Source: Eledone cirrhosa
Taxonomy: Eukaryota
NCBI GenBank assembly: GCA_964016885.1
Contig: OZ024742.1
Coordinates: 228,842,001-228,906,000 of the forward strand
Direction of reading: 5' to 3'
Length of the DNA: 64,000 bases
In this document: in pieces, positions 4,674-63,845 of the stretch
Numbering within the stretch: the first letter of the stretch is position 1
Layout of the letters: every line of letters starts with the position of its first letter
Notes under the pieces: generated by a model
The model's database searches: none
What the model was told of the DNA's origin: nothing
The model's input: only the letters and a program-made list of their open reading frames with translations
Position numbers and translations under genes: made by a program

Positions 4674-4956
4674 TTACTTCCCTTGCTTTTATCGAGAATC
4701 TAATTGTAATACGTGACGTATTCTATTCTATAGCGATTAGGTCTTCAAAATGTTTATTATAAACATACAGAATATTTTCGAATATTCTATGTCTATATTC
4801 ACATATATATCGCTATTTCAGAGCATTTATTCCAATATATATATATATATATAAAATTGAAAAAGTGAAGAATAACATGGTCAACAGTACAACAAACTAT
4901 CCATAATAAGTACTCACAACCTCTAACTGGATTACCTATAACGATATTTTGTTATC

Positions 4957-5020
<64 letters not shown>

Positions 5021-9530: not shown

Positions 9531-9569
<39 letters not shown>

Positions 9570-9801
9570 TTTACCGAAAGAAGGGGAAATTTATTTTTCC
9601 AAGCACTCAAGGTAGGCCTATGCATCAGGAGGCCGATCTCGCAGCCAGGAAAACGAACACAACAGTCCGACAGAATATTGGAACTTTAAATTTTTGTTTA
9701 GATTTATAGGATGAAGTTAAAAAAATTAAAGATTAACATTATCAAATAAAAAAATAAAAAAATTGAAAATCAAACATTAGACAGTGGTGAACCTTCAAAT
9801 C

Positions 9802-9916
<115 letters not shown>

Positions 9917-10249: not shown

Positions 10250-11872
<1,623 letters not shown>

Positions 11873-19699: not shown

Positions 19700-20858
<1,159 letters not shown>

Positions 20859-21466: not shown

Positions 21467-21471
21467 AATAT

Positions 21472-21666
21472 AAATTAGCGAGAATCGTTTTCAGCTCAGG
21501 AATTAACGAAAATCAACGTCCGATATGTGTGGCAAGCGCTCGATGAATCATATGAATCAGAGCTACAACATACGTTAAGGGCCAAACACACTGAGATGAT
21601 GGTTAAACATATCATCCGCACAGCCAAAATCAAAACGACCAAGTAATTCGGGTCAAACAATAAAAA
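21472..21666. mobile_element. ~200-bp (TA)n-inserted element, divergent relative of 54636-54867
   Basis: Collinear similarity (TAGCGAGAATCG...GGCAAGCGCTC...CAGAGCTA...GTTAAG...hairpin...GGTCAAA). Both copies lie between (TA)n tracts. Confidence 0.55.
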
Positions 21667-21675
21667 TATATGTGT

Positions 21676-21747
<72 letters not shown>

Positions 21748-27945: not shown

Positions 27946-28277
27946 TAATGTCTGTACGTAATGAGGGAGTGAGAGAGGAGAGAAAGAAAGGCGGAGGTGA
28001 AGTGACGAAGTGACTCTCTCCTCCTCCTCCTCCTCATCCTCCATCTCCCCATTCGTCACAGCGATAGAGGGGAGGAATGTTAGTGTGTTACAAAGAGAAA
28101 GAGTGAGAGTGAGAGAAACAGACAGACTAAAAGAGAGGGATAGCTGGAAAGAGAGATAGCAACCACGCGCGCACGTGTTTCCACTGTCGGACAGAGAAAT
28201 TGCTGGTTATATATTATAAGGAGATAGTGCAAATTTAGACGGGAACAAAACAGAGAGGCATATATATATATATATTA

Positions 28278-28690
28278 AATTAACAGATTAAAGTTTAAGT
28301 AAAGAATCGCTGCTTTCACCCTTAAGTGTGAAAGCAGCGATTCTTTGCTTAAACTTTAATCTGTTATTTTAATAAATATTTGCTCTACGGTTCTTATATA
28401 TTTGATATATATTTATCCTTATCGAGCCCTCTTTGGATTTTAGTCTTCAAATTTATTATTATTACTATATATATATATATATATATATTCATTAAAATAA
28501 CAGATTAAAGTTTAAGCAAAGAATCGCTGCTTTCACCCTTAACGGGATCTTCTGAAACTAAAAAAATCAATCTGTGAACGCAGAAGTAAATATTTCGAAA
28601 AACGTTGCAACCGAAGGAAAACAGCAAGACGGTACTTTGGTTCGTGGAAACGTTCCCTGGCAAAGAACGAAAAAAAAACGAAGATAATAC
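28278..28690. mobile_element. Family B copies: fold-back pair (28278-28467) plus a further copy (28491-28690)
   Basis: Matches 13-200, with an inversion near 28323. Confidence 0.75.
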
Positions 28691-32170: not shown

Positions 32171-32304
32171 GTGTAACACACCAATCAGGGAATAATGATG
32201 CAATTTGGTTTAAGTATTCAATGTCATGTATTTTCTTCCAAATATGATTTGTCAGTAAGTGACGGAAAATGTACATTTTACTTATTCTACATATACTCCG
32301 CCAC

Positions 32305-32562: not shown

Positions 32563-32912
<350 letters not shown>

Positions 32913-33540
32913 AAAAATATATATATATATATATACAGTATTAGTAGGTAAGGCGACACAAACAAGAGATGGACAGTTTCCCTTCGTCAGTTGTCTACTA
33001 CGGGTCACGGATATATTTATATATATGAATATAAATAATATTATATATCTATATCCATACACAGAACAATACGACTTTATTCTTTAGGTTTAAAGATCAA
33101 GTTATAGTTATGGCAATCTTCTCAGATTGTGGACGGTGGTACAAAATGCGTAGAGCGATCAATGTCGTGACCCCGTGTTCAGACACTGGGAAGAGTTCAA
33201 AAATAGCGTTAAACATACATATACGTGTATGTATGTGTACAACAGTCATAACGTACACATTCTCGACATTTTCATAACTTTGCTGTAGCTATACTTCATA
33301 GAACTACTGCATATTTCTTTTTATTACTTCACAGCAATCCTTTACTCCTGTAGCGATCAATAAGATTTATTGCGTAATATACCAGAAGTGGCAGTCAGTC
33401 ATGTAGGCTGAAGGTAGTACGAGTTAGGAGGAGGTGGGGGAAGGTGAGACGATGGAGATTGAAAGATTGTAAAACTCTAGTTAAGCACAATGACGGGGGA
33501 TAGATAGAGGTTTTTTGTGATATATATATATATATATATA

Positions 33541-33720: not shown

Positions 33721-33777
<57 letters not shown>

Positions 33778-34021
33778 TAAAAAGGAAAAGGACATGCTGC
33801 CAAATTTTTCCATGTGAAATAGGTTAATTAGGAATAAGTATAAATTAGTAATAAGTATTAGTTAGTATTCAGTTTTAGTTTTAAGTTAATGCGCAACCGG
33901 TAAAAACTTAAAACTAAAACTGAATACTAACTAATACTTATTGCTAATTTATACTTATTCCTAATTAAACTATTTCTTACAGGGAAACATTTTTCAGCAT
34001 TTTCTTTTCCTTTTTACTAAT
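33541..34021. mobile_element. Adjacent palindromic inserts: family B (33541-33724) and family E-related (33773-34021)
   Basis: Inversion centres at ~33655 (GGGATCTTCAGAAGATCCC) and ~33888. GCAACCGGTAAAAAC is shared with 11692. Confidence 0.75.
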
Positions 34022-34133
34022 ATATCACAAGTCGTGTGTCAGACCACTATATTATACAAGTATATACAAATCTATATATATATGTACGTATACACACACA
34101 TATTATATATATATACATATACACACACATATG

Positions 34134-34455: not shown

Positions 34456-34462
<7 letters not shown>

Positions 34463-34654
34463 GTGAGGTTTTTTTTACAAAATGAAAAATAACGGAGGTG
34501 CCCTACACGAGTGGAAGTATAAAGAAAACAAGATGAAATCGAAAATGCAACTGGAGTCTTATTTAAAAAAATATATATATATTTATTTGGTTCCTTTACC
34601 GGTTTCGCAGTTCTGCTTTTCAAAAGTAGAGTTGAGATGGAAGGTCTGTGGTTT
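34456..34654 (-). mobile_element. Family D element abutting a PLE 3' end; variant HHR at 34593-34627
   Basis: Reverse complement of family D; stem II loop shortened by 3 nt. Confidence 0.8.
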
Positions 34655-34658
34655 TTAT

Positions 34659-37600
34659 ATCGTTTCTGAATTTGTTTAGCAAGATTCTTTATCTGAAAAC
34701 GTGTGTTGAAACCGATATTGTTATACTTTGGGAGGGTCATGTTGCCAATAAGAAACACACGCACCAGTTGCTTTCACTTCAATTTATTATAATAAATTTA
34801 TAAATTTAGGAATTTATAAATTTCCGGTTGGTTGGTTGGTTCCACAACCAGATGTGACCTCTTCAGTGACTGGGGATTCTTTTCTTTATTTTTGTGCCTC
34901 TCCTTTGTTCTGTCCTACACCATCTTGTTTGTGTGTGTTGTGTGCTTAGTTTGCGCATGTGTTACATCCGGGTGTCTGTGTGTGTTTATATTTGTTTATA
35001 AATTTGTTTACTTACATGTTACTGGTTGGTTGTTTGTTCTATGTGCGTGTGTTTTATTTCATTTTGTCCTTAATTGTAAGTTGTGATGTTGCTGTTCCAT
35101 TCATGTTTTCTATTTAATTTTGGTTGGAGTTCATTTATGTTTATTGCCTCTGTGATTTGTCTAAACATTGCGTCTTTTCTGTGTGTAGATTCTATTTTTA
35201 TTTCTATGTTCTCTAATTTACCCTTATGTTCTATTTTAGCATGTTGGTAAAGTACATAGGATCTTTACTATCTTGAAGGTCTCGCCAGTGTTCATTTATC
35301 CGTTCCCCTATACTACGAGCTGTCTCACCTATGTACACTATATTCTTATCTATACATTGTCCTTCAGTACATCTTATGCTATATACTACATTTCTAGTTT
35401 TACAGTTAATATGGGGGCTTAATTTACAGATTATACATTTCTTATCTATACAGGGAGGTCTTTGAAAAGGGTATGTATTGCTAATAAGTGTTTTTATGGA
35501 GGTACCTCGTCTTTCTACTATCTTAATATTGAGTTTATGTTTATCTAGGGCCCTTCTAAATTTGTAAGCTAATTCATCTCTAGGGGTTGTATCGATGAAC
35601 ATTACACTCTGGTATTTATTACTATCATACCATGAGTTAATTCTATTAACCTTATTCCTAGTTCTTTCTATTCTATTCCAAAATTTGCTCCTATACAAGG
35701 GGCAGGTCCCATTTGTGTCATTATTTATCATTTTTTTCCCATTTGGTTCTGGCTCCTCTATATACTCTGATTTTATCTCTCTGATTGTAACCAGAGAACT
35801 GCATACGGTGGATGAAGTGTTGTATGTGTCTCTCTAGTTCTTTGGGGTTGCACATGCGGGACAGGTTTCTCATCACCCGTACCAAATCCGCAATCAGTAT
35901 GTTGATTTTGGTATGGTCCGAAACAGCTGAGTTTCGGTGGATCAGATATTCGGAAGTCATGGGTTTGGCATAATGGGAATGGAGGAGTTGTTTTTTGTTA
36001 TTAATATTATCTAACCAGAGCTCTGTGTCTAGTACAGGAAATCGATGGTTGGGGTGTTTGCTTGGGTAGTCTATAGTAACTCTAATACTCTGGTGGATGG
36101 AGTTAGCTATTTGCTGGATGCTTTCCATTGTGTTTTTCTCTAATTCCTGACTGTTCTCTAGTGGGGGTGTTTTTACTACGATGTTTATATCATCAACATA
36201 GCGGGAGTACATTATCAGGGTTAAGGGGGTCTTCTAATTGTTCTTTAAGTTTAAGTTTAAGTCTACTGTCCCACCATACCATGAATAGGTTAGCTATGTC
36301 GCCTGCAATGCTAACACCAATGGCTGCTCCCTCCTCTTAGGCATATGTTTTTCCATTAAATTTGAACATATGTTCCTTAAGGGTTAATTTTATGCTGGCC
36401 CCCACCGCATGTGCAATCATTTTCTTTAGTTCATCGTGGTTTTCGGGGGTCCGTATGGCTCTGGTCCACCCGTTCCATCTATCTGTGTGGGTTTTCTTGG
36501 CCATTGAGGTAATGGTAGGTGGTCTGCCTCTTGCTAATCTTGTACGGCACAGGCTGCTAAGGCCATATGTATCTAGATAATTATTACTATAGTAAGTTTA
36601 AGTAGGAGTCCCAGCTCACTGGTATCAATCCCATGGAATTCAACATTGCTCTCACTGATCATTTCTACGCATTTCTCCACAGCAAAATCCACGTCAATAG
36701 ATGGATACAGGGACACAATATCCATACTACCTATTATGCAGTTTATTAGGTCCCTAGATCGGTTACTCTCGCCGATTCTGCTGAGGAGGTCCTCCGTGCT
36801 GTCACATATATCTGGGTACATTTCAATGATGGCGCGTATGATCAGGGAGAGGAAGTAGGAAAGTCTGTAGTTACTAGCAATGTTAGCTCCACAGACTGGC
36901 CGTGTTGGTGGTCCTGTGACAGGGTCACTGCTCGTTTTATGGTCTTTTCGAAGCCCATACAACGCTGGCACGTCATTGTTCCAGGCCTGGAAGTTGTTGG
37001 CAGTCCTTTTGTTGGGCTGCATTATATTTGTTCACATCATCATATGTGCATTGAGGGCTTTTTCCCTATCCTCATGCTCTTGTGGTGTTACTTCTCTTGT
37101 GTTAGTGATGTGGGGTTGCATTGCCTGGATGTAGTTTGACAGACTGTCAACCGACATTCTGCCAGACTTGTCTGTTGGAAAGCATGCAATCTCTCCATTA
37201 CGCGAGCGCTGCATGAGCTTATGCAAGCCATTTGCAGATTTTTCTCCCAGTTGCTTGGCCTTCATTCTATTATGCTTCTTGCTATACTGTTCTATATTAT
37301 TTCTAAGTTTAGATCTAGCTATACTAAATTGTGCTTCTGTTTGTTCATCGACCTCCGACGGCAATTGGGTGCGTTTGTTAAAAGCTAAAGTCGTGGCGTG
37401 GACTCGTCGCAGGTCGAACGACTTACCGGAAGGATTATAAAACGTAGAGTTCCATAGCTGCTGCTTTATGTGTACTAATGCTATTGTTATTGTTAGTTGT
37501 GTTGTTTCTATTTCTATTTCCACCAACAGCCTCGTGGTTGTTTCTATGTCTCTCATTATTACTCCTCTCTCTTTCCTCTGGCTCATTGTTATTATCTACT

Positions 37601-38430
37601 CTATTTTGTGTTTCTGTGTGTTCGTCCTGGTTATTTTATCTGCCCATAGTCTCCATTCTCCTTTCAATCCTATTACCTTCTCTTATTTCTGTGCTACTGT
37701 CATTACCTATTTTCTGTGTCTGTGTGTTTGTTAAGATTGTGGTGGTGGTGAGAGGCATTGAATGTGTGTGTGTTGTTGTTGTTGTTGATGTGTGCTGTTG
37801 TTGACGTATGTTGTTGTTGTTGTCTCCGTGTATGTTATTATTGTTGTGTGTTGTTATTGTTGTTTGTGTCTGCGTGTCTGCTGTTGTTGTTTCTGAGTAT
37901 GTTATTATTGTTGATGTGTGTGTTGTTGTTATCGTTGTTTGTGTCTGTGTGTCTGTTGATGTTGGGATTTGTGTTGTATATGTGTGTGTGTGTGTGTGTG
38001 CGTATGTTACTTTTGTTTTTGTTTTTGAGGCTCCAACGTAATTTTGTAAATGATTTTTCTATTTCTGACAAGCATTTAATCATATTTACCTTATTAAATG
38101 TGGCATACTTAGGTGGTAGTTGTAATATTGATAATTCATCAGAGTCGACGGTAGTGTTGCCGTATATATTTGTGTTGTTGTTGTTGAATTCATCTGTTAA
38201 TGAGATGTCGGCCATATTTATACCGTCAATTTTGTCGGGATATCTTTCGATATTCTCTAAAGTATCTTGATTTAGTTTTATCTGTTTGAGCTACTTTAGT
38301 TTCTTGTTAAAGTGCTTGTCACATTCTTGAACAATTTACTTTTCTTCAAGACATGAGATTTATAAATATAAATTTTTCTCTTGGTGTAGTGATCTTAGTT
38401 ATTTCTTGTATTAGGTTACGCTTATGTTTT
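34659..38430 (-). mobile_element. Penelope-like retroelement (Neptune/Nematis-like), frameshifted RT plus GIY-YIG, with Asn-rich N-terminal region
   Basis: PTDKSGR, LYGLRKDHK..GPPTRPVCGAN, GSMDIVSLYPSI, YSRYVDD, FPVLD, Cx4CxxC linker and VY..YIGETARS are spread over several frames (coding remnants ~35070-38400). Confidence 0.92.
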
Positions 38431-38437
38431 TCTTGAT

Positions 38438-38757
38438 GGGTGTTTGCTTGGGTAGTCTATAGTAACTCTAATACTCTGGTGGATGGAGTTAGCTATTTTC
38501 TGGATGCTTTCCATTGTGTTTTTCTCTAATTCCTGACTGTTCTCTAGTAGGGGTGTTTTTACTACGATGTTTATATCATCAATGTAGCGGGAGTACATTA
38601 TCAGGGTTAAGGGGGTCTTCTAGTTGTTCTTTAAGTTTAAGTTTAAGTCTACTGTCCCACCATACCATGAATAGGTTAGCTATGTCGCCTGCAATGCTAT
38701 CACCAATATCTGCTCCCTCTTCTTGGGCATATGTTTTTCCATTAAATTTGAACATAT
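38438..38757 (-). pseudogene. Extra ~320-bp PLE RT-core fragment homologous to 36052-36372
   Basis: Direct similarity with several substitutions; ends at (TA)n. Confidence 0.85.
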
Positions 38758-38839
38758 GTATATATATATAAGAATATATATATATATTCTGCCTCTATGT
38801 TTGTACTGCCTCTCTGTTTTGTTCCCGTTCCATTTTTCA

Positions 38840-39575: not shown

Positions 39576-39649
<74 letters not shown>

Positions 39650-39652
<3 letters not shown>

Positions 39653-41143
39653 AAGGAAAAGCGAAGTAGTTTCAGATGTTCAAGCCCTTTAATAATAATT
39701 GTTTCTACTTTAGGCACAAGGCCAGCAAATACCCAGTGCATTACTGGTACTTTATTTTATCGGCCCCGTAAGGATGAAAGGCAAAGTCAACCTTGGCGGG
39801 ATTTGAACTCAGTTCGTAAAGGGACGTAACTATGCTGGAAAGCATGGCGTCCGACCCTCTACCGATACTGCCAATCCAATGGCGAAAGTGGCCACACTGT
39901 TCTGTGCGCCAGTCTCGCACATCGTCAGACAGCTTGTTACATAATAAGGTTATGTTTCCGAGGCAATCCAAATTGAATCGACATAAACCCCTATTTTTCT
40001 GCACCAAATCGCATTTGAACAGAAGCCCCCTCAATTCAACCTATACATGGACAAATTGACAATGATATGGATCATTTTGCATATATGTACTCTGTGTTTT
40101 TGCAATCAATCAATCAATCAATCATTCATTCATTCATTCACTCATTCATTCATTCATTCATTGGTTCTTTTCTTTTGTGTACTTTATATATGTCTTTCTT
40201 AGTCTTGTTCCATGTGATGGAAATTACGACTATGTACCCAATTGACTACTACTCCTAATACTGTAATTTACCCTCAGTTCTACTGTACGGCACCATCGTT
40301 CAGTATGTAGATAGTGTAACTGTCACATTAGGACCCCTTTCAGAACTCCTTACTTAAACATCTCTCTGCATATTATTTACTCACTTCAATCTATATTTTT
40401 TTTACTCACCTCAACCCGGATTCTCACTTGAAAAATCTTTAATTGTTTAATTTCTATTTGTTAATTTTTAATTTATAATTTCTGATACTTGATTTAGGAT
40501 TTTCGATTTTAAATTGTAATTTTTAGTTCTAATTTCACTTATAACTTCCAATATGAAACTATGATACATAGAATTAAAAATATATACTCTTAGGGGTTGA
40601 TGGTCAGTTATTAGTGAGAGGTAGTATAGAGACCTGTAAATACTGACACTCTCCCATCCCCACTGGCTTTCGGCTGACTGCCACAGATGGGATGAGTAGC
40701 AGTAAACTATGGTGCAGGCTTGAATGGGTCATTGTCTGGCTGAGAGAGGGAACGAACTAAGCGAATTTCGTTTAAATCTGCGGTAGCTAATGGTCAACTT
40801 CCCCCTGGACCTGCGCCTGCGCAGACCAGTGGGGGTGAATTGGTACTCACATGGGAACGGATGAAGTACCCAAAAGCACATACTTCGTCCGTTCCCATGT
40901 CGATTCAATTTGGATTGCCTCAAAACATAACCTTATTATGTAACTATCTGACGATGTCGCGAGACTGGCGCACAGAACAGAGTGGCCACTTTCGCCATTG
41001 AAATATATATCACAGCATTATTATTAAAGAACTTGAACATCTGAAAATACTTCGCTTTTCCTTATTCGATATTTACTCCGTCACTCCTACGTGGAATAAG
41101 TACGTTGAGTGCTTGATTTGAATTGCATCAACGTTTACCCTAA
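39650..41143. mobile_element. Family G insert: ~170-bp inverted arms (39650-39984 interrupted by a SINE; 40895-41067) with an HHR-like motif and 3' tail
   Basis: The arms are reverse complements and (TA)n lies on both sides. CTGACGA-tgt(c)gcg...cgcaca-GAAC at 40948; TTGAGTGCTT at 41105. Confidence 0.55.
39694..39877 (-). mobile_element. tRNA-SINE inserted into the family G left arm
   Basis: Consensus match; absent from the right arm. Confidence 0.85.
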
Positions 41144-41353
41144 GATATATATATATATTGTTATACTTGGGGAGGGTCATATTTGTGTAATATTGCCAGA
41201 ATTAATAACAGAACACACTCACTGTTTGGTTGGTTTTCGCTTCTGTGTCTTTTATATCGGTAATCTAATTTATTAGGTCCTCAATGTTGCCATTGACTGA
41301 CCAACGGTCAAAAATACAGATACAATATAGACACAAACACATATATATAGTTT

Positions 41354-41395
41354 ATCAAAATTCTTTCGTTGCACATCTGCAACATCATCAGTGGT
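41354..41395 (-). ncRNA. Type I hammerhead ribozyme in the PLE 3' UTR/pLTR
   Basis: acca-CTGATGA-t-gttgca(gatg)tgcaac-GAAA-gaat-TT-tgat; same sense as the ORF. Confidence 0.72.
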
Positions 41396-42173
41396 GCTAT
41401 TGTTTCCTCCCGTTGCATTTTATTTTCTACGCCATCTTTATTTAGTCTATTTATATATTTATTTATTTGTTTATTTTATTTTGTCTTCTTTGCGCATGCG
41501 TTTGCGTCTGTGTATAGTGTTTTGTTTGATGTGTGTTCGTGATTGGGTGACTGTGTATTGGTAAATGTATTCTATCTTTACTAGTGTGTGTTTATATGTG
41601 TTTGTTGTTATTGTGCTTGTGTATGTATTTATTTATTTATTTATCTAGTTATTTATTTATACTTCTCTTAGGTCAGTGTTGTTTGTTTGGGTGTTGTTGT
41701 TATTCCATTCATTCTTTCTGTTTAGCCTTGGCCTTCTAAATTCTATTTCACTGGCCTCTCTGATTTGCGTATCTGCTGGGTCATTTCTATGTTTAGATAT
41801 TATTCTAATTTCTATGTTGTCTATGTTACCGTCGTGTTGTTGTCTGGGATGTTCGTATAGTACTGAACCGTTTTTTCGTCCTTTTAGTTCCTACCAGTAT
41901 TGGTCTATCCTTTCACCTATGCTACGAGCTGTCTCGCCTATGTATGTTGTTGTCATGTTTCATACATTTCCTATTAGTACAGTGGGTTTTCTTAAAAGGG
42001 TAGGTTTTGCTGATCAGGGATTTTATGGTGGTTCCTGGCTTTTCTACCACCTTAATCTCCAAGTGGGTCTTTCTCAGGGCCTTTCTACACTGGTTAGCTA
42101 ATTTCCCTCCAGGGATAGCGTCCACAAACATGACACTCTGGTATCTCTGGTTGTCGTACCATGAGGTGGCTTT

Positions 42174-43565
42174 CTATATCTTATGTCTAGCCCTATATAA
42201 TCTATTCCATGATTTGCTCCTGTATAATGGGCAAATTCCTTTCATGTCCAGTTCTATGAGGGTCTTATACTTCTCCGTGACTCCTTCGTATACTCTGACT
42301 CTGTCTCTTTGGTTGTAGCCAGAGAACTGCATGCGGTTGATGAAGTGTTGGATGTGTCTTTCCATTTCTGTTGGGTCGCACATACGGGACACATTCTTCA
42401 TCACTCGTACCAAATCTGCGATCAGAATATTAAACTTTGCACTACTGGACATTGCTGAGTTTTTGAGTATCAGGTATTTGGAGGCCATGGCTTTAGCATA
42501 GTGTGAGTGGAGAATTTGGGCTCTCTCGTCTATAGTGTTAATCCAGTGTTCCGTGTCTAATACAGGTAGTCTATTGTTAGGGTGTTTGGAAGGGTAGTCG
42601 ATAGTTACAGTTCTACTTTGGTGTATGGAATTAGCTATCTGCTGGATGCTTTCCATTGTGCTATATTCTAAATCCAACTTGTTAGTGCTCTCTTGTGGGG
42701 ATGTTCTTATAACTATATTGATATCGTCTACGTAACGAGAGTACATGATGAGGTCTATGGAGCTCTCATTAAGGAGATCTTTAAGTCTCCTTTCCCACCA
42801 TACCATAAAAAGGTTGGCAACGTCACCAGCTATGCTGACGCCAATGGCTGCTCCCTCATTTTGGGTGTAGATCTTCTCGTTGAACTTGAATATGTGGCCC
42901 TTTAGGGTAGTTTTGATACTAGCCCCCATTGCATGTGCGACCATTTTTCTTACCTGATCATTGTTTTGGGGGGTCTGTATAGCTTTGGTCCATCCAATCC
43001 ACCTTCCCATGGGAGTCCTTTTAGCCATTGAGGTTATGGTGGGGGGTCTACCTCTTATGGGTCTACTAGGGCAGAAACGTCTAAGGTCATGGCTGTCTAG
43101 GTAGTCAGTGTCGTAGGTAAGTCTAAGTAGGAGGCCCAGTTCGTCTGTGTCGACGTCGCAGAACTCCACCTCACTCTCAATGATCATCACACATTTTTCC
43201 ACAGCAAAATCAATGTTAATGGATGGGTACAGTGATACCACATCCATGCTGCCTATTATGCAGTTGGATAGGTTCCTGTTTTTGTTGCACTCACCGATTC
43301 TGCTGAGGAGGTCCTCTGTACTGTCACATACATCTCGGGACATCTTGATTGTGGGGCGTATAACCATTGACAGGAAGTAGGAGATCCTGTAGTTGCTAGC
43401 TATATTTGCTCCGCATACGGGTCTTGTTGGTGGTCCTGTTGTCGGGTCCTCGACTGCCTTGTGGTCTTTGCGGAGCACATACAAGGGTGGTATGCCATTG
43501 TTAGACGCCTGGAAGTTGTTGGCAGTGCGTCTGCTTGGCTTTAGGATGTCGGTCCACATCATCAT
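42174..43565 (-). pseudogene. PLE reverse transcriptase core and thumb (frameshifted from flanking ORFs)
   Basis: 463-aa open frame with all RT motifs including YVDD. Confidence 0.9.
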
Positions 43566-45228
43566 GTGAGCGACAGGATTTTCTCTCTCCCATCATGTAT
43601 TTGCTGTGCAATTTCGCTCGTGTTGGTGATGTGGGGCTGCATAGCCTTGATGTAGTTAGGCATGCTATCTATTGACATCCTACCAGACTTATCCGTGGGT
43701 AGACATACTACCTCACCATCCCTTGTGCGCTGCTTGAGGCTAACCGAGCCTTCTACAGGTTTCTTCCCAAGTTGTTGGGCCTCTGGTCTGCTCTGTCTCT
43801 TAGTATACCTGTCTACTATTTGTTTAATCTTATTTCTAGCTATGGTGAACTGTGCCTCTGTCTCGTCATCTATTTGTTGTGGTATGCAAACTCTTTTATT
43901 AAAGGGTAACCTCGTAGGATAGATATTACCCATCTTATATGTTTTGTCAGCTGGGCTGAAGAATAGTTTCTCTAAGGGGTTGTCATTATATCTATCGTCA
44001 TAGTTGTGTGTGTTGCTATTATTGTTATTATGGTGGTTGTTGTTGTTCCTATCATTAGCATTATTATTATTTTTATGATTGCTAGATGTATTGTTGCTGT
44101 GATTGTTGTTTTCTTCACTGTTATTGTTGTTGTTACTGTTATTTCTACCATTGTGGTTGTTACTTTTATTATGTTTCTTGTTTTTGTTGTGTCTATCATT
44201 AATGTTGCTACATGTATTATTTCTATTATTACCACTGTGGTTGTTGTTGCTGTTATTCGTATTGTTACCGTTATTACTACTGTGGTCGCTGCTGCTGTGT
44301 CTGTAGTTAATGTTTCTATTATTATTATTATTGTGGTTGTTGTTGTTGTTCTGTCTATCGTTAGTATTATTACCATTATTACTATTTCTCATTCTCCTGC
44401 TATTGCTATTGTTATGACTATTACTATTATAGCTGTTATTTCTATACTCAGAGTTATTGTTTATATTAATACTACCGTTATTATTGTTGTTGTTGTCCGT
44501 ATAGTTGTTGTTGTTGTTTACTTTTCCATTCCAACGTACTTTTGTGAAACACTTTTCCAGCTTCGTTTTGCACTCAATAGGGTTAATCTTTTTGTAGATG
44601 GCAAATTTTAGTGGTAGATGCAGGATTTGTTGTTCTTGTTCACTGATTAAAGTGTTCCCAGAAATATTTACTGTGTGGTCATTGGTAAATTCTTCCGGTA
44701 GTTCTACATCAGCCGTACGGATATTGTTGATGTTATCTGGGTATTTTTGAGAATATTCTAGTTTCCTTTCTTCTAGTTTTTTCTTATTCATCGATTCTAA
44801 TTTCTTATTGAAATGCCTATTGCATTCGTTTCGGGCGTATTTCGTTTCACGTCGGATGACGCTCATGAAGTCATCCCTTTCGTTTGGTGTGGTGAGATTT
44901 TGGACTTCCTTACCGTTAATGCGTTTCTGTCTGTAGAGTTCGTTGACTTTTGTGTATGTTGTTCTTTTCATATTAACTGTTATTGTGTGTTTTAGTCATT
45001 CCGCTTGTGTTTTGTTCAATAATAAATTATTTACTTGTTTTGATATGTTTGTTGTGTATATTTTGGAGGAAACACAGGGTTTTAAGAAGCGGATTTGTTC
45101 TGTTGTTATTGTAGTTTTTATATAACAGAAATATGACCCTCCCCAAGTATAACAATAGTTGTTTCGACACACGATTTCATATCAAAAACCAACCTCGCAA
45201 AACTAATATATATATATATATATATATA

Positions 45229-45438
45229 TTAGAAAGTGAGGTTTTTTTTACAAAATGAAAATTAACCGAGGTGTCCTATACGAGTGAAAGTATAAAGAAA
45301 AAAAGATGAAATCGAAAATGCAACTGGAGTCTTATTTAAAAAAATATATATATATTTATTTGGTTCCTTTACCGGCGTCGCAGTTCTTCTGCTTTTCAAA
45401 AGTAGAGTTGAGATGGAGGGTCTGTGGTTTTTCTCACA
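45229..45438 (-). mobile_element. Family D element (HHR GAAA mutated to GACG)
   Basis: Reverse complement of family D; shares the TA tract with the PLE 5' end. Confidence 0.8.
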
Positions 45439-45650
45439 TCTGGTTGGTCTTTGAATGTTACTTGTTTTATATGGAAAAAAGTGGCTCGAAACGCCAGGTT
45501 TTTAGAGAAGTAATTTGATTGGTTGGTCAATAATTATAATAAATTTCGCCCCAGTTCGCATTACACAGTTCGGAATTAGAGTATTCCGCAGTTCACAGTA
45601 ATAATAATATTAGCTCAAAGAAGAACAGAGAATTTTCAACTGAGCTCAAA

Positions 45651-46281: not shown

Positions 46282-46778
<497 letters not shown>

Positions 46779-49199: not shown

Positions 49200-49920
49200 T
49201 TGCAAAGCTAACTTCGGTGGGATTTGAATTCAGAACATAAAGGGACGTAACTCTACGCCATGAAACATAGTGTCCGGCACTTTACTGATACTGCCAATCC
49301 TCTGAACTAATAATAATAATGGTTTTTTTGATTTAGGCATAAGGCCAACAACTTTTGTGGATGGGAAGTTATTATCGACCCCGTATGGATGAAAGGCATA
49401 ACTAGCATCGGCAAGATTTGAACTTAGAACGTAAAGGACCATAACTATATGCCGCAAAGCTTATTGTCCGATGCCCCACCGATTCTACTAATCCACCGGC
49501 CTAACAATGATGATAATTGTTTCTACTTTTGGCACAAGGCCAGCAATATGCCAGTGCATTACTGGTACATTATTTTATCGACCCCGTAAGGATGAAAGGC
49601 AAAGTTAACCTTGGCGGGATTTGAACTCAGAATGGCAAGGGCCGTAACTCTATGCGTCAAAGCATGGTGTCCAACCCTCTACCGATACTGCCAATCCACC
49701 GCCCTTAATAATGATGATAATGGTTTCTGATTTCGTCCCAAAGCCAACAATTGTGGCGGAGGGGAAAGTCGATTAAATCGGCCCCAGTGCGTTACTAGTA
49801 CTTTATTTTAATCGACCCGGGAAGGGTGAAAGGCAAAGCTAACATTGGCAAGGTTTGAACTTAGAACGTAAAGGGTTGTAACTAAATATTGCAAAGCATG
49901 TTGTCCGACGCTCTACTAAC
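49200..49920 (-). mobile_element. Cluster of four tRNA-SINE copies of different ages
   Basis: Repeated GGATTTGAAC B-box complements at ~49222, 49415, 49618 and 49853. Confidence 0.8.
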
Positions 49921-51749: not shown

Positions 51750-51787
51750 ACACACACGCATAAACACACACATTATATCCTTAGCGT

Positions 51788-51974
51788 TGGATTGGCAGTA
51801 TCGGTAGAGGGCCGGACGCCATGCTTTTGACGCATAGAGTTACGGCCCTTGCCATTCTGAGTTCAAATCCCGTCGAGGTTAACTTTGCCTTTCATCCTAA
51901 CGGGGGTCGATAAAATAAAGTACCAGTAATACACTGGGAAATTGCTGGCCTTGTGCCCATTGTAGAAACAATTA
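51788..51974 (+). mobile_element. tRNA-SINE
   Basis: Consensus match. Confidence 0.85.
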
Positions 51975-52628
51975 TATCCCTAGCGTAGAATCTCAACGAA
52001 AAGAGAAAGTACTGGAGTCGATATGGTTGACTAAATCCCTTTTAAGATGGTACCACAGCATGGCCACAATTTAATGACAGAAACAATTTTTATGTCTAAG
52101 TTATATTTACTTACCAACGTTTGGAAGTTATATCTCTTGATTATATATAATATATTATCCAACTTATCCATATATTATTTGATAAAATATGATATACTAA
52201 CATGTGATAAACCAACAAAAGGAATCATATATTTCTTGTTTCCTTTTATAAAAATAAAGTATTCGATATCTTCCAGATAATAAATATATGACATGAACTT
52301 TTCACTGTAATAAGGATTATTGATATAAGAATATCTAAAACCTAAAACATAAAACAGCATAAGAAATCCCAGTATAAACGAATCTGATGTAATGACATCT
52401 GATGTAACAAACAAAGCAGACATTTGTATACACAAATGGAAACGAAAGTATGTAAGTATGTAATCAATTGAACAGACTTACGGGGAAGTAGAGTGGTTCA
52501 AATTTATAATTATCCATCAGTAGTTAGAAATAGGTTGTCGTTTGGTTTTTTGCTTGCTTTTTTAACTTTGCATTTTATATACAGCAAAGTAGTACAGCAA
52601 AGTTTTCTATGTAATCAATAATATGTAA

Positions 52629-52682: not shown

Positions 52683-52843
52683 TATATATATATATATAAG
52701 TTATTCCGGGTTGAATCGGAGGTAACCACAGTAAGTAAGGTACTCAATACATAGCAGAGTATAAAAGTTTTAATATAGAAGAGCTTCTATAGGAATAGAA
52801 CTGTTTCATTCGTGAGAAATCATCAGATATATATATATATACG

Positions 52844-52883: not shown

Positions 52884-52888
<5 letters not shown>

Positions 52889-52992
52889 AGAATGAAAGGA
52901 AATTTCATTTCTCACTCTTAGTACGGCACTTACTTAAATGTAAGTATGTATGTATACGTACATACATATATGTATACAGACGTACAGTAGCA

Positions 52993-53062
<70 letters not shown>

Positions 53063-53629
53063 CAGGCACACATATATATATGCACGTATCAGTTTACCGA
53101 ACATTTATTATAATGTTCGCTTTGTTCGTTTGTAAACAAACGAACAGCCTGATTTACGCCGTACAGTGTTCAGGCAACCACGTCACCTTTTTGTTCAACA
53201 CTGACACAGGAACGATGTACTAGTTTCAAGCTTGTTAGCTATCGTCAGCACCGTATACCTTTCTGCCAGATGGTTGAACGTCCGAAAGTATATACTTTCC
53301 TTATGAAAATTAACGGCTGAGCAGCCTAATTTGCATATCGAGTGAGTTCAGTCGACCAGACGCACCGAAAACGATAAATGGAATAGAATGAAACGAAATT
53401 TCATTTCTCACTCTTATACGGCACTTACTTAGTACGGCACTTACGATAGCTAACAAGCTTGAAACTAGTACATCGTTCCTGTGTCAGTGTTGAACAAAAA
53501 GGTGATGTGGTTGCCTTAACACTGTACGGCGTAAATCAGGCTGTTCTTTTATTTACAAACGAACAAAGCGAACATTATAATAAATGTTCGGTAAACTGAT
53601 GCGTGCATATATATATGTGTGCCTGTATG

Positions 53630-54602: not shown

Positions 54603-54638
<36 letters not shown>

Positions 54639-54892
54639 AACAAAGATTCAGCGAGAATCGCATTTTCGGCGGGCAGGAAAAGCGAAGCGAAAGGCAAAAC
54701 TCAGAAATGATACTGGCAAAGTGCTCAATAGTTAAAAACCAGAGCTAAACAATGTGTTAAGAAGCTATACAAAACTGGAAAGGTGGTCAAGAAGGCATTA
54801 ACCACTTAAGCCTAAAACCAAATCAAGCTAAACAGGTCAAAACAAAATAAATGATAAAAAATAACCATATATATATATATATATATATATAT

Positions 54893-55200
54893 ATCAATGA
54901 TATTAATAAATGGAAACTATATTTATAAAACCATATTTATTCTATTATATATATTTCAAGGGTAGCAAAACTTTGGTACGCCCTCATCAGATAAAATAGA
55001 AAGTTTGTTTTATAAATATTGACATATCCAGGAATGAGACATTAACGGTTCAAGTTTTACCTGGCTAGTACCAAAGTTTTGGTACCCTTGAAATATATAT
55101 AATAGAATAAATATGGTTTTATAAATATAATTTCTATTTATTAATATCATTGATATTATGCTCCAGAAAAATCTGTCGAGTGCTTCGAATCAATTATAAA
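54893..55200. mobile_element. Non-autonomous head-to-head pair related to the Hydra-type PLE pLTR; HHR at ~54945-54996 (-)
   Basis: GATATTAATAAATGGAAACTATATTTATAAAACCATATTTATT matches 58392 and 62468. Motif CTGATGA-gggcgtacc...ccctt-GAAA-tata-TA; tail carries TCGAGTGCTT at 55176. Confidence 0.8.
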
Positions 55201-55241
55201 TATATATTTGTTCAATTACCAACAAATTAAATATCCCTTTG

Positions 55242-55287
<46 letters not shown>

Positions 55288-55290
<3 letters not shown>

Positions 55291-55497
55291 CGAAGGAAAT
55301 GTGGTAAGGAACCAGGTGGACCATAACGCACCAAAGTACTCAATACTTGGGGTAGTAGAGTGGGTAATAGGAACCAGTAAGACCCCGACGGCTGAGCTCA
55401 AGCCGTTTCGACGGCTAATTCAGGACTCAATTAGCTGTCGTCCTGAATTAGCCGTCGAAACGGCTTGAGCTCAGCCGTCGGGGTCTTACTGGTTCCT
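55288..55497. mobile_element. Family C palindromic insert
   Basis: Arms inverted about ~55432; flanked by (TA)n. Confidence 0.75.
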
Positions 55498-57239: not shown

Positions 57240-58185
57240 GAATCGACCTCAGTACTGGACTTGTACATTATTTATCGACATCGAATGAAAAGTAAAGTTT
57301 ACCTTGGCAGGATTTGGGCAGAGAGGGCGAGCAGCAGACAAGAATACTGCAAAGAACACTATTCGACGTTTTAAGGACCCTGCCATTTTAGTGTCTATAT
57401 AATTGTTGCTACTTTTGGCACAAGGCCAGCATTTATTCCAATACAATACTGGTGCTTTATTTCATCGACACCATAAGGATGAAAGGCAAAGTTAACCTCG
57501 GCGGAATTTGAACTTAGAGAGTAAAGGGGCGTAGCTCTATGCTGCAAAGCATGGTGTCCGACCCTCCACCGATTTGCCAATCCGCCGCCCATCTCTATAA
57601 TGTTATATACCATAATGTTACTCCGATTATTGTATTACAAGTTGTGTTGGACCTCCGTCTCTTGCGATGATGCGTGTTCCAGTTCTTTGAGCCTGCTCTT
57701 TGAATATTCCTCACATGCCTGCACTATTAGCGTAGTTTTCAGAGAGATTCAACAGTGCGTGACATGGTTGGCCGTTTGAATTATAGCTAAAATTCACTTC
57801 TCCAGCTGATTGGACTAAAGCCACGCAAAGTAAAGTGAATTCCTTATAGAACACAACATGTTGCTGCTAATCTAACTCATAAGCGCACGATCATGAGACG
57901 AACTCCTTAACCACCAACCCACTTGCCTTCAATAATATTAAAGTAGTAAGATATAAGAGCAGTAGGTATCAGCTAACCTCTCAAATTCCTGCGGATAATA
58001 ATTTCTAATTATAGGCACAGGGGTAGCAATTTGTGGGGAGGAAAAGTCGATTATACCAGTATTTTACTGGAACTGTTATTTTTAACAACACTTGGAAGTT
58101 GACATTGGTGGGATTCGACATAATAGTGCAAATAGTGCAAAATATTTTGTCTGACGCTCTAATGATTCTCCCGATCCAACTCCCT
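57240..58185 (-). mobile_element. Three diverged tRNA-SINE copies (57240-57390, 57400-57590, 57997-58185)
   Basis: Degenerate consensus match. Confidence 0.7.
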
Positions 58186-58435
58186 TAATTCCTGCGCATA
58201 ACTATAATAGAAAATACTAGCAGAAAGGCCCGGCGTTGCTCGGAATTTGCTCTAGGGTTCTTATATATTTGATATATATATATCCTTATCGAGTCTCGTG
58301 AAATAAATATGTTTGTTTATATTTTGTTATTGTGTATGTAAAAATATCTGTACACGAATATATAATTATATATATATATTTATATATATACGATATTAAC
58401 AAATGGAAACTATATTTATAAAACCATATTTATTT

Positions 58436-58492
58436 CATTATACATATTTCAAGGACACCAAGGTAAATTATGATGTGCTTTCATCAGATAAA
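58436..58492 (-). ncRNA. Hammerhead motif in the 3' pLTR (second copy 62512-62568)
   Basis: ttat-CTGATGA-aagcacatca...tggtgtcctt-GAAA-tatg-TA-taa; stem I is out of register by one nucleotide. Confidence 0.7.
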
Positions 58493-58673
58493 ATAGAGCA
58501 GTTTTATAAATAAATATTGACATACCCTTAAAGAATGCAACCATTACTGTTGGAAGCTTCCGGATAGTTGAGTTGTATCTTTAATTATACTATTATGTAA
58601 GTTAATATTGGATATTTTTAAATAAGCCGTTGGGTTACGGAGAAAGAGAAAGAGAGAGAGAGAGAAGAACAAC

Positions 58674-58755
<82 letters not shown>

Positions 58756-59107
58756 ACAGCAGAGAGAAAAAAGAAATAGAAAAGAGAGAGAGAGAGAGAG
58801 AGAGATTGAAACTCTAAGTTATCTTAACATTTGAGATGAAATGAATAAATAAAATTAGAAATGTTAATAATCATGAATGGAAGATACATATATAATATGA
58901 GAAATTTTTCCATTGTTTAAATATGATTAAATGTTTAGTTAATCAGTTAAAATATTGAGATCAATACATTAAAAATTGAGATCTATATATTAAGAAATCT
59001 ATATATTATTATTAAGACTATATATTATTAAAAAACCTATATATTATTAGAAGAATATAACACACATACACACGCAAATATACATACATATAAATATATA
59101 TACACAC

Positions 59108-59179
<72 letters not shown>

Positions 59180-60189
59180 ATCACACGTATATATATATAT
59201 ATATATATATATCCATCTACGTATATAATATATACATACAAAATATAAAGGATTTTTTAATTTAAGATATAGGAATCTTATAAAATCAGAGAAGTCATTT
59301 CTATGTAATATCAAAGCAGCGTGAAGGAAAATTACGTTATTTAGTTATATAAATGTTACAATTGTTAAGATATTAAAGGAAATTTTATGTTATACACACT
59401 TTATGTTATTCTATAAATTTTTTTATATATAAGTTTTATAAGATTACCTGTTATGTAGTTATGACTGTTATTATATATGTTTATTTGTCACGAACCTTGG
59501 GATAATCCCTATAAATAAGTGCAATCGAATTGTATGCATATACACATATATATACATACACAATTCCCTCATATACATACATATACGTACCCACACAAAT
59601 AGGTAGATATGCATCACATATACATATACATATACATACAGATACACATATGCGCATTAAACATATGTACATGTATATCAATACACACACATATATATAT
59701 ACACACATATATAGAGAGAAACATATATAAATACAGTACATAGTATAATTGAAGTACATAAAATACAAAATAATTATATTACGATGGAAATATAATTATA
59801 AGCAATATAACTTTAAAAATATTATAGAATATTGCAAGTTATAATTTTAAAATAATAATATGCTTAATAAATTTAGTATAAAATTTTCTACGTATATTTA
59901 ACTTAATTTTATATCCATAAGAGAAAGAAAAAGAAACTTTCAAAAGATAAACTTTCGAAAATATGAGAAACTATAAAAAAATATTTTCCCCTTTTAAGAG
60001 CTTTCAGTATATTTCTCTAGGAGAGTTTATTATATTTATTTATATTTAGGAAGAAATGTTTTTTTTACTTGAGTGTATAAGCAGTCAAAAAATGAAGGAA
60101 TCTAATGATTTATCGATAGGTTCAATATATTAATAGAATTAATTAATTAATTATATATTACATTTTAAATTTATATTTAAACGTCGATT

Positions 60190-62328
60190 TCAATCTATGC
60201 AACTGAATAAATTGTTCCTTAGGTTCAGGGAATTTTTGGTCTTTAATATAAAGAATATTTCCTCTATACAAAGATCACAATTTTCTGAAGAGGAGTTAAA
60301 AGGAGTTAAAAGGAGTAGCTCTTGAAATAATATTCCAAATCAATGAATATTCAACGTTATTTAGTTTGAGGTCCCACAATAAGCTAGATAGAGGAGTTGA
60401 AGATTTTTTGTTTGGATCCGTAAAAGAATTTTTATGATTATTGAAGCGGGATTTAAACTCTTGGGAAGCGGATCCCACATAATTAAATGAATTTAAATTA
60501 GTTTTTACATTACAATTATATACTATATTTTTAGCTAAGCAATTGTTATTTAACGGACAGTTAGATTTATTTCTACAGTTACATTTATCAAATTGGATAT
60601 TGCTTGGGTTATTAGTGGTATTTTGGTTAGGTTTTAAATTTCTATTATTAATTCTATTAATATTTTGCGCTAAATTTTTGGTGGAAGAATGAATTAATTT
60701 TATAGTATGTCTATTAAAAATTGAGTAATATATATGTGTTCTAGGGAAGCATTTGTCAAGAGCTTTAAAAAATAGTTTAGCAATAGGGGTTTTAATATTT
60801 AAGGAGGAGCGAACCATAATATATTCCTAGTTCTATTTCTTTTTTTGTTTTCGAAATTATTGTAATGTTTTCTATTATAGTTGTTAAAATTGTTAAAATA
60901 GTTAAAATTGTTACGATTATGGTTAGTTGTTATATTATTATTATCAATGTATTTAATTTTATTTCTATACCCAGCTCTACCTAACGCTTCGTTGTAATAA
61001 TGTGCTTTTTCCTCAAATATATTATTATTAGCTGAAATTCTCGAAATTCGTTCCTGTACAGAGTTCACTATAGTATTTTTAACGGATCTGGGGTGATTAG
61101 AGTTAAAATTGACGTAATTTAAGTTCTCATTTAGTTTGTGAAATGGATAATGAAGACATGTGTTAAGGTTTAGTGTTACATCTAGAAAGTTAACTATTTT
61201 ATGGTTATTCTCTATTTCTACTTTTAGATTAAGGTAATTAAAAAATTGTATAATTTGTTTTCTTTTTCTATTTAGTTCACGATATAAACCTCCGGTTATC
61301 TCAGGTATTTTCCTATGTAGAGAATTATTTATAAAGAGGCCCACAAGATCCGTTACCTGAGCGGAATCGGATGATCCCATAGTTATATCGAAGTTATTAT
61401 TTCTATCTGCGCTAGTCCAGAGTTGGTTATTAAATTCTATTAATGTTTTCCGTGCCGATAATATAATGTGCATTTCATTGCTAGTTAAGTCTGTATGTTT
61501 AAATGCGTAAGTTAGTGCTTTATTCAGTAGATTAGGAGTGATAGATGAGTAATAGTTAGCAATATCCAACTGAATAAACTTATTATTATAGTTATATTTA
61601 ATTTCCTTAAACCAATCGAGAACTTCACTAGTTCCTTTACATAATTTTAAATAAGATAAATTCTTAATTTGTGGTATTATTCTGTCTAAAATATTTTTGC
61701 TAAGCCTGCCAAGGTCCGATTTAGATGGTGCAATTAATCTGACTGGTAAATCAGTTTCAAAGTTTCTTTTGTGATCCTTCATATTAATTTTAGGTTTCCT
61801 TGGCATGAAGGGTTGTGTTTTATTTTCAATGCCTAGTTCATGCATTATATAAGAGGCATCTGTATTCAATTTTTCAAGGTCGTCGTTATTTGCTACTTTG
61901 TATTTCTTCCTTAATTCCTTTAATATAAGATCGTTATAAATGTCCTTTTGTATTCCGTAAAGATTATTGGTTTTGTCAGGCTTGATTAGAATTTTCTCCG
62001 TTTTCTCCAAGTTTTCAATATTATTCTTAATATTTCTTAAGTAATCCTGGCCTTTGACGTTGCTTTTGAATGTGATGCTTTGGATGATAGATATGATTTC
62101 ATTTTCAAAATCCATTAGTAGTTTGTTGGGGGGTGGATTTTTTTTAGATTTAAAGATTTTATCCAGATTGGAGACATTTTCATTTAGATTAGATTTATCG
62201 AAGTGGAAAGCACGTCACCTGATTCTTTTTATAAAATAGTCTGATTTTTCTATTAATTGTTTAATAAAATCTTTATTACTAGGTAAAGGTATGTCCTTTA
62301 GAGAAGAGGAAACCTTAAAGAATTCCAT
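60190..62328 (-). pseudogene. PLE RT plus GIY-YIG ORF, inactivated
   Basis: ATG at 62328 (MEFFKVSSSLKDIPLP..IKRIR*RAFHF) with in-frame TGA at 62215-62217. Motifs: PDKTNN, KDHK, LDIANYYSSI, FDITMGSSDSAQVTDLVG, GLYR lacking the catalytic DD, NFLD, NILWFAPP (frameshift), CNCRx4CPLx3C, IVY..YVG, CDLC. A 10-bp duplication causes another frameshift near 60300. Confidence 0.9.
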
Positions 62329-63845
62329 TTTTCAGTTATAATATAAAGCGCTCGACAATACAGGAACAGAATATATGTAAAAGTTCTATTTAAATTGTTG
62401 GAATACAACAAGCAAATATTTTTATAACTGATATAAAGCACTCAACAAATAATTGAAGTAAAAATACGATATTAACAAATGGAAACTATATTTATAAAAC
62501 AATATTTATTTCATTATACATATTTCAAGGACATCAAGTTAAATTATGGTGTGCTTTCATCAGATAAAATATAATATAGAGCAGTTTTATAAATAAATAT
62601 TGACATACCCTTAAAGAATGCAACCATTACTGTTGGAAGCTCCCGGATAGTGGAGTTATAGCTTTAATTATACTATTAGGTAAGTTAGTATTGGATATTT
62701 TTAAATAAGCCGTTGGGTTACGGAGAAAGAGAAAGAGAGAGAGAGAGAGAGAAGAACAACAGAGAGATAAAAAAGAGAGAGAGAAGAACAACAGAGAGAA
62801 AAAAACAGAGAGAAAAAAGAAAGAGAAAAAAAAAGAGAGAGAGAGAGTGAAACTCTAAGTCATATCTTGTTGAGTTATCTTAACATTTGAGATGAAATGA
62901 ATAAATAAAAATAGAAATGTTAATAATCATGAATGAAAGATACATATATAATATGAGAAATGTATCCATTGTTTAAATATGATTAAATGTTAATCAGTTA
63001 AAATGTTAATCAGTTAAAATATTGAGATCAATACATTAAAAATTGAGATCTATAAATTAATAAATCTATATATTATTATTAAGACTATATATTACTAAAA
63101 AACCTATATGTTATTAGAAGAATGTAACACACATACACACGCAAATATACATACATATAAATATATATACACACGTATAAATATATATATATAGCCATCT
63201 ACGTATATAATATATACATACAAAATATAAAGGATTTTTTAATTTAAGATATAGGAATCTTATAAAATCAGAGAAGTCATTTCTATGTAATATCAAAGCA
63301 GCAAGAACGAAAATTACGTTATTTAGTTATATAAATGTTACAATTGTTAAGATATTAAAGGAAATTTTATGTTATACACACTTTATGTTATTCTATAAAT
63401 TTTTTTATATATAAGTTTTATAAGATTACCTGTTATGTAGTTATGACTGTTATTATATGTCTATTTGTCACGAACCTTGGGATAATCCCTATAAATAAGT
63501 GCAATCGAATTGTATGCATATACACATATATATAAATACACAATTCCCTCATATACATACATATACGTACCCAAAACAAATAGGTAGATATGCATCACAT
63601 ATACATATACATACAGATACACATGCGCGCATTAAACATATGTACATGTATATCAATACACACACATATATATATATACACACATATATAGAGAGAAACA
63701 TATATAAATACAGTACATAGTATAATTGAAGTACATAAAATACAAAAGAATTATATTACGATTTGGAAATATAATTATAAGCAATATAACTTTAAAACAA
63801 TATAACTTTAAAAATATTATAGAATAGAATATTTTTACTCTATAG

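Follow-up and report, generated by a model that had tools for sequence, protein, structure and literature searches.

The window analysed here is a stretch of 64 kb of AT-rich animal DNA that is rich in (TA)n, and positions 58388-63797 hold a Hydra-type Penelope-like element (PLE) (Table 1). Its single ORF, which encodes a reverse transcriptase (RT) followed by a GIY-YIG-type endonuclease at the C terminus, matches a Hydra-like profile with a probability of 99.9 and is broken: the frame contains stops and, near 60800, a frameshift, and part of the RT core is deleted. It has DKT (instead of DKG) at 61977 and a CxCx5C linker at 60583, no CCHH was seen in it by eye, and the N-terminal RWK position reads R-stop-R, with RWK/R present within the first 80 residues in 12/18 Hydra-like relatives. 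In a FastTree phylogeny, built without published Hydra proteins, the RT falls with 18 Hydra-like proteins defined by motif and is separated from 13 other PLEs. Two further features of the Hydra clade, a type I hammerhead core in each pseudo-LTR and insertion in (TA)n, were also found; a search against Rfam at gathering score gave no match in the window, hammerheads included.

The Hydra clade of PLEs, including its hammerhead and tail, has been defined previously, and within the sections of that account covered here it has the same C-terminal endonuclease, DKT, CxCx5C, absence of CCHH, hammerhead and (TA)n targets (Craig et al., 2021, PMC8557442). Because its 3' UTR is long and microsatellite-rich, the PLE unit here is ~4.1 kb, as opposed to <3 kb in published Hydra elements; in the same sections of the source, a length under 3 kb is a tendency of the clade and no strict criterion (PMC8557442). 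The 5' pseudo-LTR sequence runs on through two sites of the motif considered below to the ATG, and the 3' copy stops in (TA)n.

Table 1. Features of the 64-kb window; H1 and H2 are the two hairpins described in the text
Feature	Position	Strand	Remarks
Hydra-type PLE ORF, RT and endonuclease	60190..62328	-	ATG at 62328; broken
5' pseudo-LTR (upstream copy of 3' UTR)	62464..63797	-	84% identity to 58388-59818
3' pseudo-LTR	58388..59818	-	short end in (TA)n, 4-7 nt before expected H1 start
Type I hammerhead motif	62507..62571	-	core by search, stems by eye; second copy ~58431-58495
PLE tail	62371..62467	-	short end 62464-62467 to long end 62371-62378; H1 inside, H2 outside
Hairpin H1	62436..62459	-	site 62436 is 3' arm; one 5'-arm base decayed in window copy
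Hairpin H2	62346..62367	-	site 62346 is 3' arm, 25 nt before ATG
Tail-only copy of the PLE's family with H1	10705..10808	-	89% identity to 62383-62467; long end 3 nt before H2 position
Sister-family snap-back 3' end	54895..55244	+	hammerhead, short end left, tail with H1 (55160-55185) right
Long snap-back 3' end	39649..41146	+	hammerhead core 40948, long-looped H1 41075-41114
Family A snap-back with H1 (site 46529)	46387..46582	+	full hammerhead core not captured
Family A, other copies	7183-7289, 55290-55496	-	homology
Family F snap-back, hammerhead core and H1 (site 32748)	32709..32916	-	second copy 52699-52826 (site 52738)
Family B snap-back, long-looped H1	28276..28465	+	homology, descriptor
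Family B, other copies	33541-33726, 58245-58366, 1-162		hammerhead core 33658 in the first
230-bp (TA)n-flanked element, perfect H1 (site 54719)	54637..54866	-	no hammerhead core, no inverted arm; top match of outside model, E 7e-6
211-bp element with H1 (site 21534)	21467..21677	-	distant homologue of 54637-54866; no hammerhead core, no inverted arm
10-mer site 9601	9567..9804	-	no matching 5' arm; no match to hairpin model
Near match 4908	4854..4959	-	no clean 5' arm; no match to hairpin model
Chance 10-mer	20469..20478	-	in DDE transposase remnant; no match to hairpin model
311-bp tandem arrays	1177-4836
Family C	11947-12319, 26056-26267, 32302-32516, 34457-34656, 45230-45452
Family D snap-backs	11395-11825, 33775-34072
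Second, non-Hydra PLE type	41159-45207, ~35000-38760, 182-1128, 8988-9529
SINE-like family	5230-5422, 12858-13723, 18336-18511, 27753-27946, 28700-28888, 29081-29466, 39692-39878, 49513-49700, 51784-51975, 57399-57590
Another (TA)n snap-back family	53082-53606, 52885-52995, 10233-10665		hammerhead core 53248
Trinucleotide minisatellite	13880-17200

Other repeats in the window

A 311-bp unit forms two head-to-head tandem arrays, with 99.9% identity, a type I hammerhead core per unit and (TA)n on the flanks, and represents a young retrozyme-like array in which the Hydra hairpin described below was not seen. Family C consists of five ~210-bp copies whose 5' ends are nearly identical and whose hammerhead-like core is degenerate, and it has the appearance of a discrete non-autonomous family. 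In its tail, ~15 nt past the short end, stands a small hairpin of another kind, GTGT-N3-ACAC, and the family D snap-backs have a GTGT...ACAC tail hairpin in common with it, which is possibly the counterpart signal of another PLE clade. The second PLE type has DKSG, a CxxC linker and GIY-YIG, from which we take it to be Neptune-like, and a few nt past the short end its tails have GTTTCRACACAC in common. There are also an abundant ~190-bp SINE-like family with copies 80-95% identical, another (TA)n snap-back family in which no clear hairpin was found, and a long GGT/GTT-type minisatellite that gives rise to spurious long ORFs.

The 10-mer and its sites

The motif under study, AAGYRCTCRA (sense TYGAGYRCTT), had been reported at 12 positions in the window, all of which hold exact matches (7227, 9601, 10768, 20469, 21534, 41105, 46529, 54719, 55176, 55334, 62346 and 62436), and the near matches reported at 4908, 32748, 52738 and in family B were likewise found. 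Against these 12, dinucleotide shuffles of the window (n=100) gave a mean of 0.48 and block shuffles of the repeat-masked window (n=200) gave 0.65 ± 0.76, each with a maximum of 3; the earlier estimate was ~1 chance match per window. The motif was defined post hoc, so window statistics alone overstate it, and the outside loci described below are the real test. The match at 20469, previously set aside as chance, does lie in a transposase remnant and outside the hairpin system, and the two PLE sites just downstream of the 5' pseudo-LTR are the 3' arms of H2 and H1. A near match at 4908 is possibly a decayed tail.

The initial annotation also held that the motif faces (TA)n at ~15-85 nt, and all nine exact sites outside the PLE and the transposase have a (TA)n run 14-82 nt downstream, an arrangement expected for ~20% of unmasked positions. 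These nine are not independent and fall into five groups once homologues are collapsed: the PLE's own leader has homologues at 10768 and 55176, 7227, 46529 and 55334 belong to a single family (family A), 21534 and 54719 are weak homologues of each other, and 41105 and 9601 form one group each.

A twin hairpin in Hydra-type leaders

The 10-mer is the 3' arm of a bulged hairpin that lies between the hammerhead and the ATG and is present twice (H1 and H2). The hairpin consists of RCTC, an upper stem and loop, a 2-nt bulge, GAGY and then RCT. It was followed in an outside set of 91 loci, of which 14 are MAG contigs and 77 come from 389 metagenome matches (the best 80). The set yielded 37 complete hammerhead-to-ATG leaders, or 30 after near-duplicate removal; a viral_contigs search returned no Hydra relatives. 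The MAG contigs (L078-L091) are bacterial and carry animal-type Hydra PLEs flanked by (TA)n, which are probably host DNA contamination.

Among the 30 outside leaders, 22 contain the anchor GAGYRCT twice, 6 contain it once and 2 lack it; most of the eight exceptions show one-letter anchor variants by eye. RCTC stands upstream of 49/50 anchors. Leaders contain 48 anchors in 5.3 kb, as opposed to 4 across 166 kb of sense ORF. The hammerhead's GAAA is followed after 64-85 nt by H1, and 19-62 nt separate H2 from the ATG. The exact 10-mer, which had been put forward as the signal itself, is real and exceeds chance; as a definition of the signal it is too narrow, being present in only 9/30 of these leaders.

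When upper pairs were scored in hairpins selected on sequence anchors only, pairs 1-3 were Watson-Crick in 47/49, 30/49 and 30/41 cases, vs 25.8, 14.4 and 11.0 after shuffling, with pair 4 marginal and pair 5 unpaired. A 24-row alignment of hairpins with 10-12 nt insides contains 26 double-sided changes vs 7.6 in shuffles, which ignore relatedness, and RNAalifold returns the same fold from it. The first upper pair partly tracks the hairpin (T-A in 14/22 for H1, C-G in 21/22 for H2), so that few independent events lie behind its covariation. Compensatory lower-stem variants, GCAC/GTGC, are seen by eye in two loci (L080 and L084). Between the two arms, the spacer ranges in length from 6 to 24 nt and shows the covariation of a stem, for which reason the promoter element considered in the initial annotation is disfavoured.

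A hairpin model built solely from the 24 outside rows gave 124 matches in 67/92 loci, 117 of them on the ORF strand (a hand count in which the 24 rows are training data); the control clade is one locus, L092, which ends before any hammerhead. The seven best matches of the model in the window, with E from 7e-6 to 0.08, are all sites named in the initial annotation (54719, 46529, 55334, 10768, 7227, 55176 and 52738). It gave no match in the window at 9601, 4908, 20469, 21534, 41105 or family B, although 21534, 41105 and family B fit the descriptor, their loops being longer than those of the model. A site at 31699 that fits the descriptor was rejected, as it has neither hammerhead nor (TA)n context and ~1.7 such chance matches are expected.

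The PLE's own H1 and H2 score weakly with the model (E 6-7) and are 92 nt apart, vs 55-83 in outside loci. Most reads have Watson-Crick bases where the 5' arms of the window PLE have decayed: in run X7 (one mate direction), the pairing base was present in 10028/10342 reads at 62456 (H1) and in 192/194 at 62366 (H2). Taken singly, the hairpins of the window do not exceed shuffles in stability (z -0.14 to -1.07), only 5/10 appear in the minimum-energy fold, and folding of H1 and H2 hairpins is strand-blind (37/44 sense vs 40/44 antisense).

In the part of the supplement of PMC8557442 that gives six new Hydra consensi, inspection by eye showed a clean RCTC-stem-loop-2-nt bulge-GAGC-ACT in three, among them Hydra-1_Ajap, where it occurs twice, just before the ATG; it is present as variants in Hydra-1_Crog, is weak in Hydra-1_Amil and was not seen in Hydra-1_Obim. 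With six 9-10-mers, neither a Naiad nor a Chlamys terminus was located in the covered part of this supplement, where line breaks can hide matches, and the hairpin is absent from the other PLE-type ends in the window (families C, D and E).

Copy ends at the hairpins

Outside copy ends were mapped against the complete leader, giving 34, of which 9 at contig edges were dropped to leave 25; alignments <45 nt and cross-locus matches <95% were also dropped before the count. Eighteen of the 25 ends lie at -4 to +8 nt of a hairpin 5' arm, an interval chosen after an earlier look at the ends, with 9 at H1 and 9 at H2, where 3.6 would be expected under a uniform null and 8.6 under a TA-aware null (any TAT/ATA); the other 7 miss the interval. 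With one end per family, the count is 13/20 vs 7.5 expected under the TA-aware null (P 0.0014). TAT/ATA stands at -10..-3 in 18/22 H1 and 14/22 H2 hairpins of the outside leaders, vs a background of 26%.

The same arrangement was seen by eye in the window, where every short end of the hairpin families (9/9) precedes H1 by 2-7 nt. H2 is known for two long ends, 10705 (against the PLE) and 28465 (against the family B copy 1-162), and each stops 3 nt before it, while one long end, 33541, falls directly after H1. Public contigs and reads from 4 of 9 listed runs were compared with 61900-62720, and (TA)n loose ends in reads and contigs of the PLE family were found at 62464-62474 and 62371. In two RAD runs, depth declines in steps, being ~13,000-24,000 close to the hammerhead and 10-70 within the ORF. 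Since copies end a few nt 5' of H1 (short ends) or H2 (long ends), the one-sided tail of the PLE corresponds to H1 plus spacer. Taken across the clade, a twin hairpin that has apparently escaped description marks both ends of Hydra PLE copies.

These ends bear on the view that the hairpins serve expression, through promoter activity, translation control or hammerhead folding, and that ends cluster merely via a TA-rich patch. The patch upstream of the hairpin is indeed TA-rich, and the positions of H1 after the hammerhead and of H2 before the ATG would suit such a role. However, the one-per-family count exceeds the null that allows for TA, and the presence of two copies matching two ends, as well as of H1 in ORF-less elements lacking a hammerhead core, would be left unexplained, making this view very improbable.

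A proposed model for internal initiation

The initial annotation had proposed a cis signal for RT recognition or initiation, a claim that is supported and can be sharpened, in that the motif makes up one half of a bulged hairpin, found clade-wide in two copies, with ends just 5' of each copy. The attributes expected of an RNA element at which RT starts, namely conserved structure, compensatory pairs and a fixed distance to copy ends, were all observed. We infer, and consider it probable, that the protein binds the hairpin on RNA, that the primer, nicked (TA)n, is positioned just 5' of it, and that RT starts internally. According to this model, the element's own endonuclease would nick (TA)n, the nicked 3' end would be placed on the A/U-rich patch just 5' of the hairpin, and reverse transcription would begin there and proceed away from the hairpin. 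Two hairpins would thus provide two start sites, and both starts on one RNA, using opposite target strands, could yield the inverted truncated arm and the one-sided tail. By analogy with Poseidon PAc, for which a dimer is predicted (PMC11167929), a dimer may serve the two hairpins.

Alternatively, the endonuclease might recognise the motif in DNA, whether duplex, extruded or as single-stranded cDNA, and nick the adjoining AT-rich patch, with ends arising from self-insertion and resolution. This would be consistent with the strand-blind folding noted above, with the reported finding that, for plasmids to be recognised by the endonuclease, the tail of D. virilis Penelope was required, and with nicking by the Poseidon protein of its own pseudo-LTR (PMC11167929). 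Full-length copies that start at the hairpin after (TA)n, as seen by eye in L010, L046 and L088 (H1) and in L018 (H2), could be read in the same way, although such 5' starts are equally expected from circular or tandem RNA copied for one unit. The spacer of variable length and the covarying upper pairs suit a single-stranded fold and not a duplex site, and the (TA)n arrays joined by the ends are foreign and contain no hairpin, so that action on DNA seems improbable.

It could also be that RNA is cut, or its 3' end formed, under the direction of the hairpins and just 5' of them, with RT then using ordinary RNA 3' ends. Such processing predicts the same genomic ends, and RNA-seq read ends have been reported at the Poseidon start sites, but the Poseidon protein initiates at internal positions of uncut RNA, 3' extensions being ignored (PMC11167929). 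Moreover, snap-backs would need both ends per event, which one cut RNA could not template. We regard this explanation as still less probable than action on DNA.

Hairpin-bearing mini-elements

The small elements carrying the motif had been described as unrelated mini-elements mobilised in trans, a description that is mostly not borne out, since most are snap-back, 5'-truncated 3' ends. Hammerhead cores were found in four groups (55176, 41105, 32748/52738 and family B); these groups and family A are snap-backs whose join points differ from copy to copy, as in dead-on-arrival PLE insertions. Together with the homology of two sites to the PLE, this indicates that they derive by truncation from the 3' ends of several Hydra-type families. 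A fixed 5' end common to many copies was not found for families A and B. The snap-back at 39649-41146 contains a SINE-like repeat inside its inverted arm. No tandem hammerhead units, as in a tandem retrozyme, were found among the motif-bearing elements, the separate 311-bp array being the only one to have them.

Two elements differ from the rest. The 211-bp and 230-bp elements at sites 21534 and 54719 resemble each other end to end, with one copy of each in the window, and are candidates for non-autonomous elements mobilised in trans. A tRNA-derived SINE was considered for this pair and rejected, as no tRNA match was found down to E 10.

The reading of the initial annotation, in which a shared 10-mer lets unrelated non-autonomous elements use the enzyme of this one PLE in trans, draws on the likeness of this pair in length and ends without a hammerhead core, on the lack of homology outside the motif among families A, F and B, the pair itself and the PLE cluster, and on a read depth on the terminus several hundred times that of the ORF. 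Divergent autonomous Hydra families, however, likewise share the hairpin alone, and the join points of A and of B vary among copies. The family B copy at 1-162 extends beyond its long end and enters the first part of an H2 at the window edge, so that the ORF of an autonomous parent may begin just to the left of the window. A terminal excess of reads can come from truncation alone, and RAD libraries are biased. On balance, mobilisation of unrelated elements by this single PLE appears doubtful.

Under the model of internal initiation at an RNA hairpin, the mini-elements would mainly be products of this process from at least five families, cut short near the hammerhead, and any hairpin-bearing RNA could also be copied in trans. 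A bolder version, which we put forward tentatively as a possibility short of likely, is that the duplicated hairpin is the RT-docking signal of the whole Hydra clade, that two subunits prime both strands to produce tail and inverted arm, and that the hairpin alone lets ORF-less, hammerhead-less RNAs, such as that of 54637-54866, be copied into (TA)n in trans.

Comparison with known systems

Structured RNA that recruits RT and sets its start is known from the shared 3' stem-loops of LINEs and SINEs, from the R2 3' UTR and from template-adjacent elements of telomerase RNA. The LINE and R2 signals lie upstream of a terminal start and are copied into cDNA, unlike the hairpin here, which lies 3' of an internal start, would be excluded from the cDNA begun there, and is duplicated. 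Penelope-like RTs are the sister group of telomerase, and both RNA recognition and the choice of an internal start are at stake.

As in the Hydra clade, the PLE here has a pseudo-LTR with an inverted truncated arm and a one-sided tail, which in the sections of PMC8557442 covered here is attributed to endonuclease cleavage, with nothing described 3' of the hammerhead. The tail here is ~55-95 nt, vs 30-40 nt in the Hydra clade as given in these sections (PMC8557442). The twin hairpin offers a simple account of the one-sided tail that is precise and cheap to test. No description of the hairpin was found in Rfam or in the covered parts of the open-access literature searched.

Hammerheads, retrozymes and octopus repeats have been covered, within the parts of these sources considered, in PMC4209133, PMC7229834, PMC13282606 and bioRxiv 10.64898/2026.07.22.740005, and short hammerhead repeats known as non-LTR retrozymes are thought there to use PLE enzymes in trans (PMC7229834; bioRxiv 10.64898/2026.07.22.740005). 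Retrozymes are tandem arrays for which those parts name no recognition signal, whereas each motif-bearing element here either is a single snap-back or has no hammerhead core. The hairpin also aids the annotation of short (TA)n-embedded repeats as Hydra ends and, if portable, could act as a minimal tag for RT-directed insertion into (TA)n.

The closest experimental parallel is Poseidon PAc, where it was shown in vitro that two internal RT start sites bound the tail and that RNA 3' of them is required (Frangieh et al., 2024, PMC11167929). Those sites lie inside the ORF in an AC-rich stem-loop, whereas here they would be situated in the leader, with a conserved hairpin of defined form after each, and the Poseidon start site is not homologous to the cut DNA, as opposed to the short TA pairing that we infer here (PMC11167929). 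In the covered part of this sole in vitro study, the signal was narrowed to 172 nt, within which a binding motif is only hypothesised (PMC11167929), while here an element of ~25 nt occurs twice and is aligned with both copy ends across divergent families.
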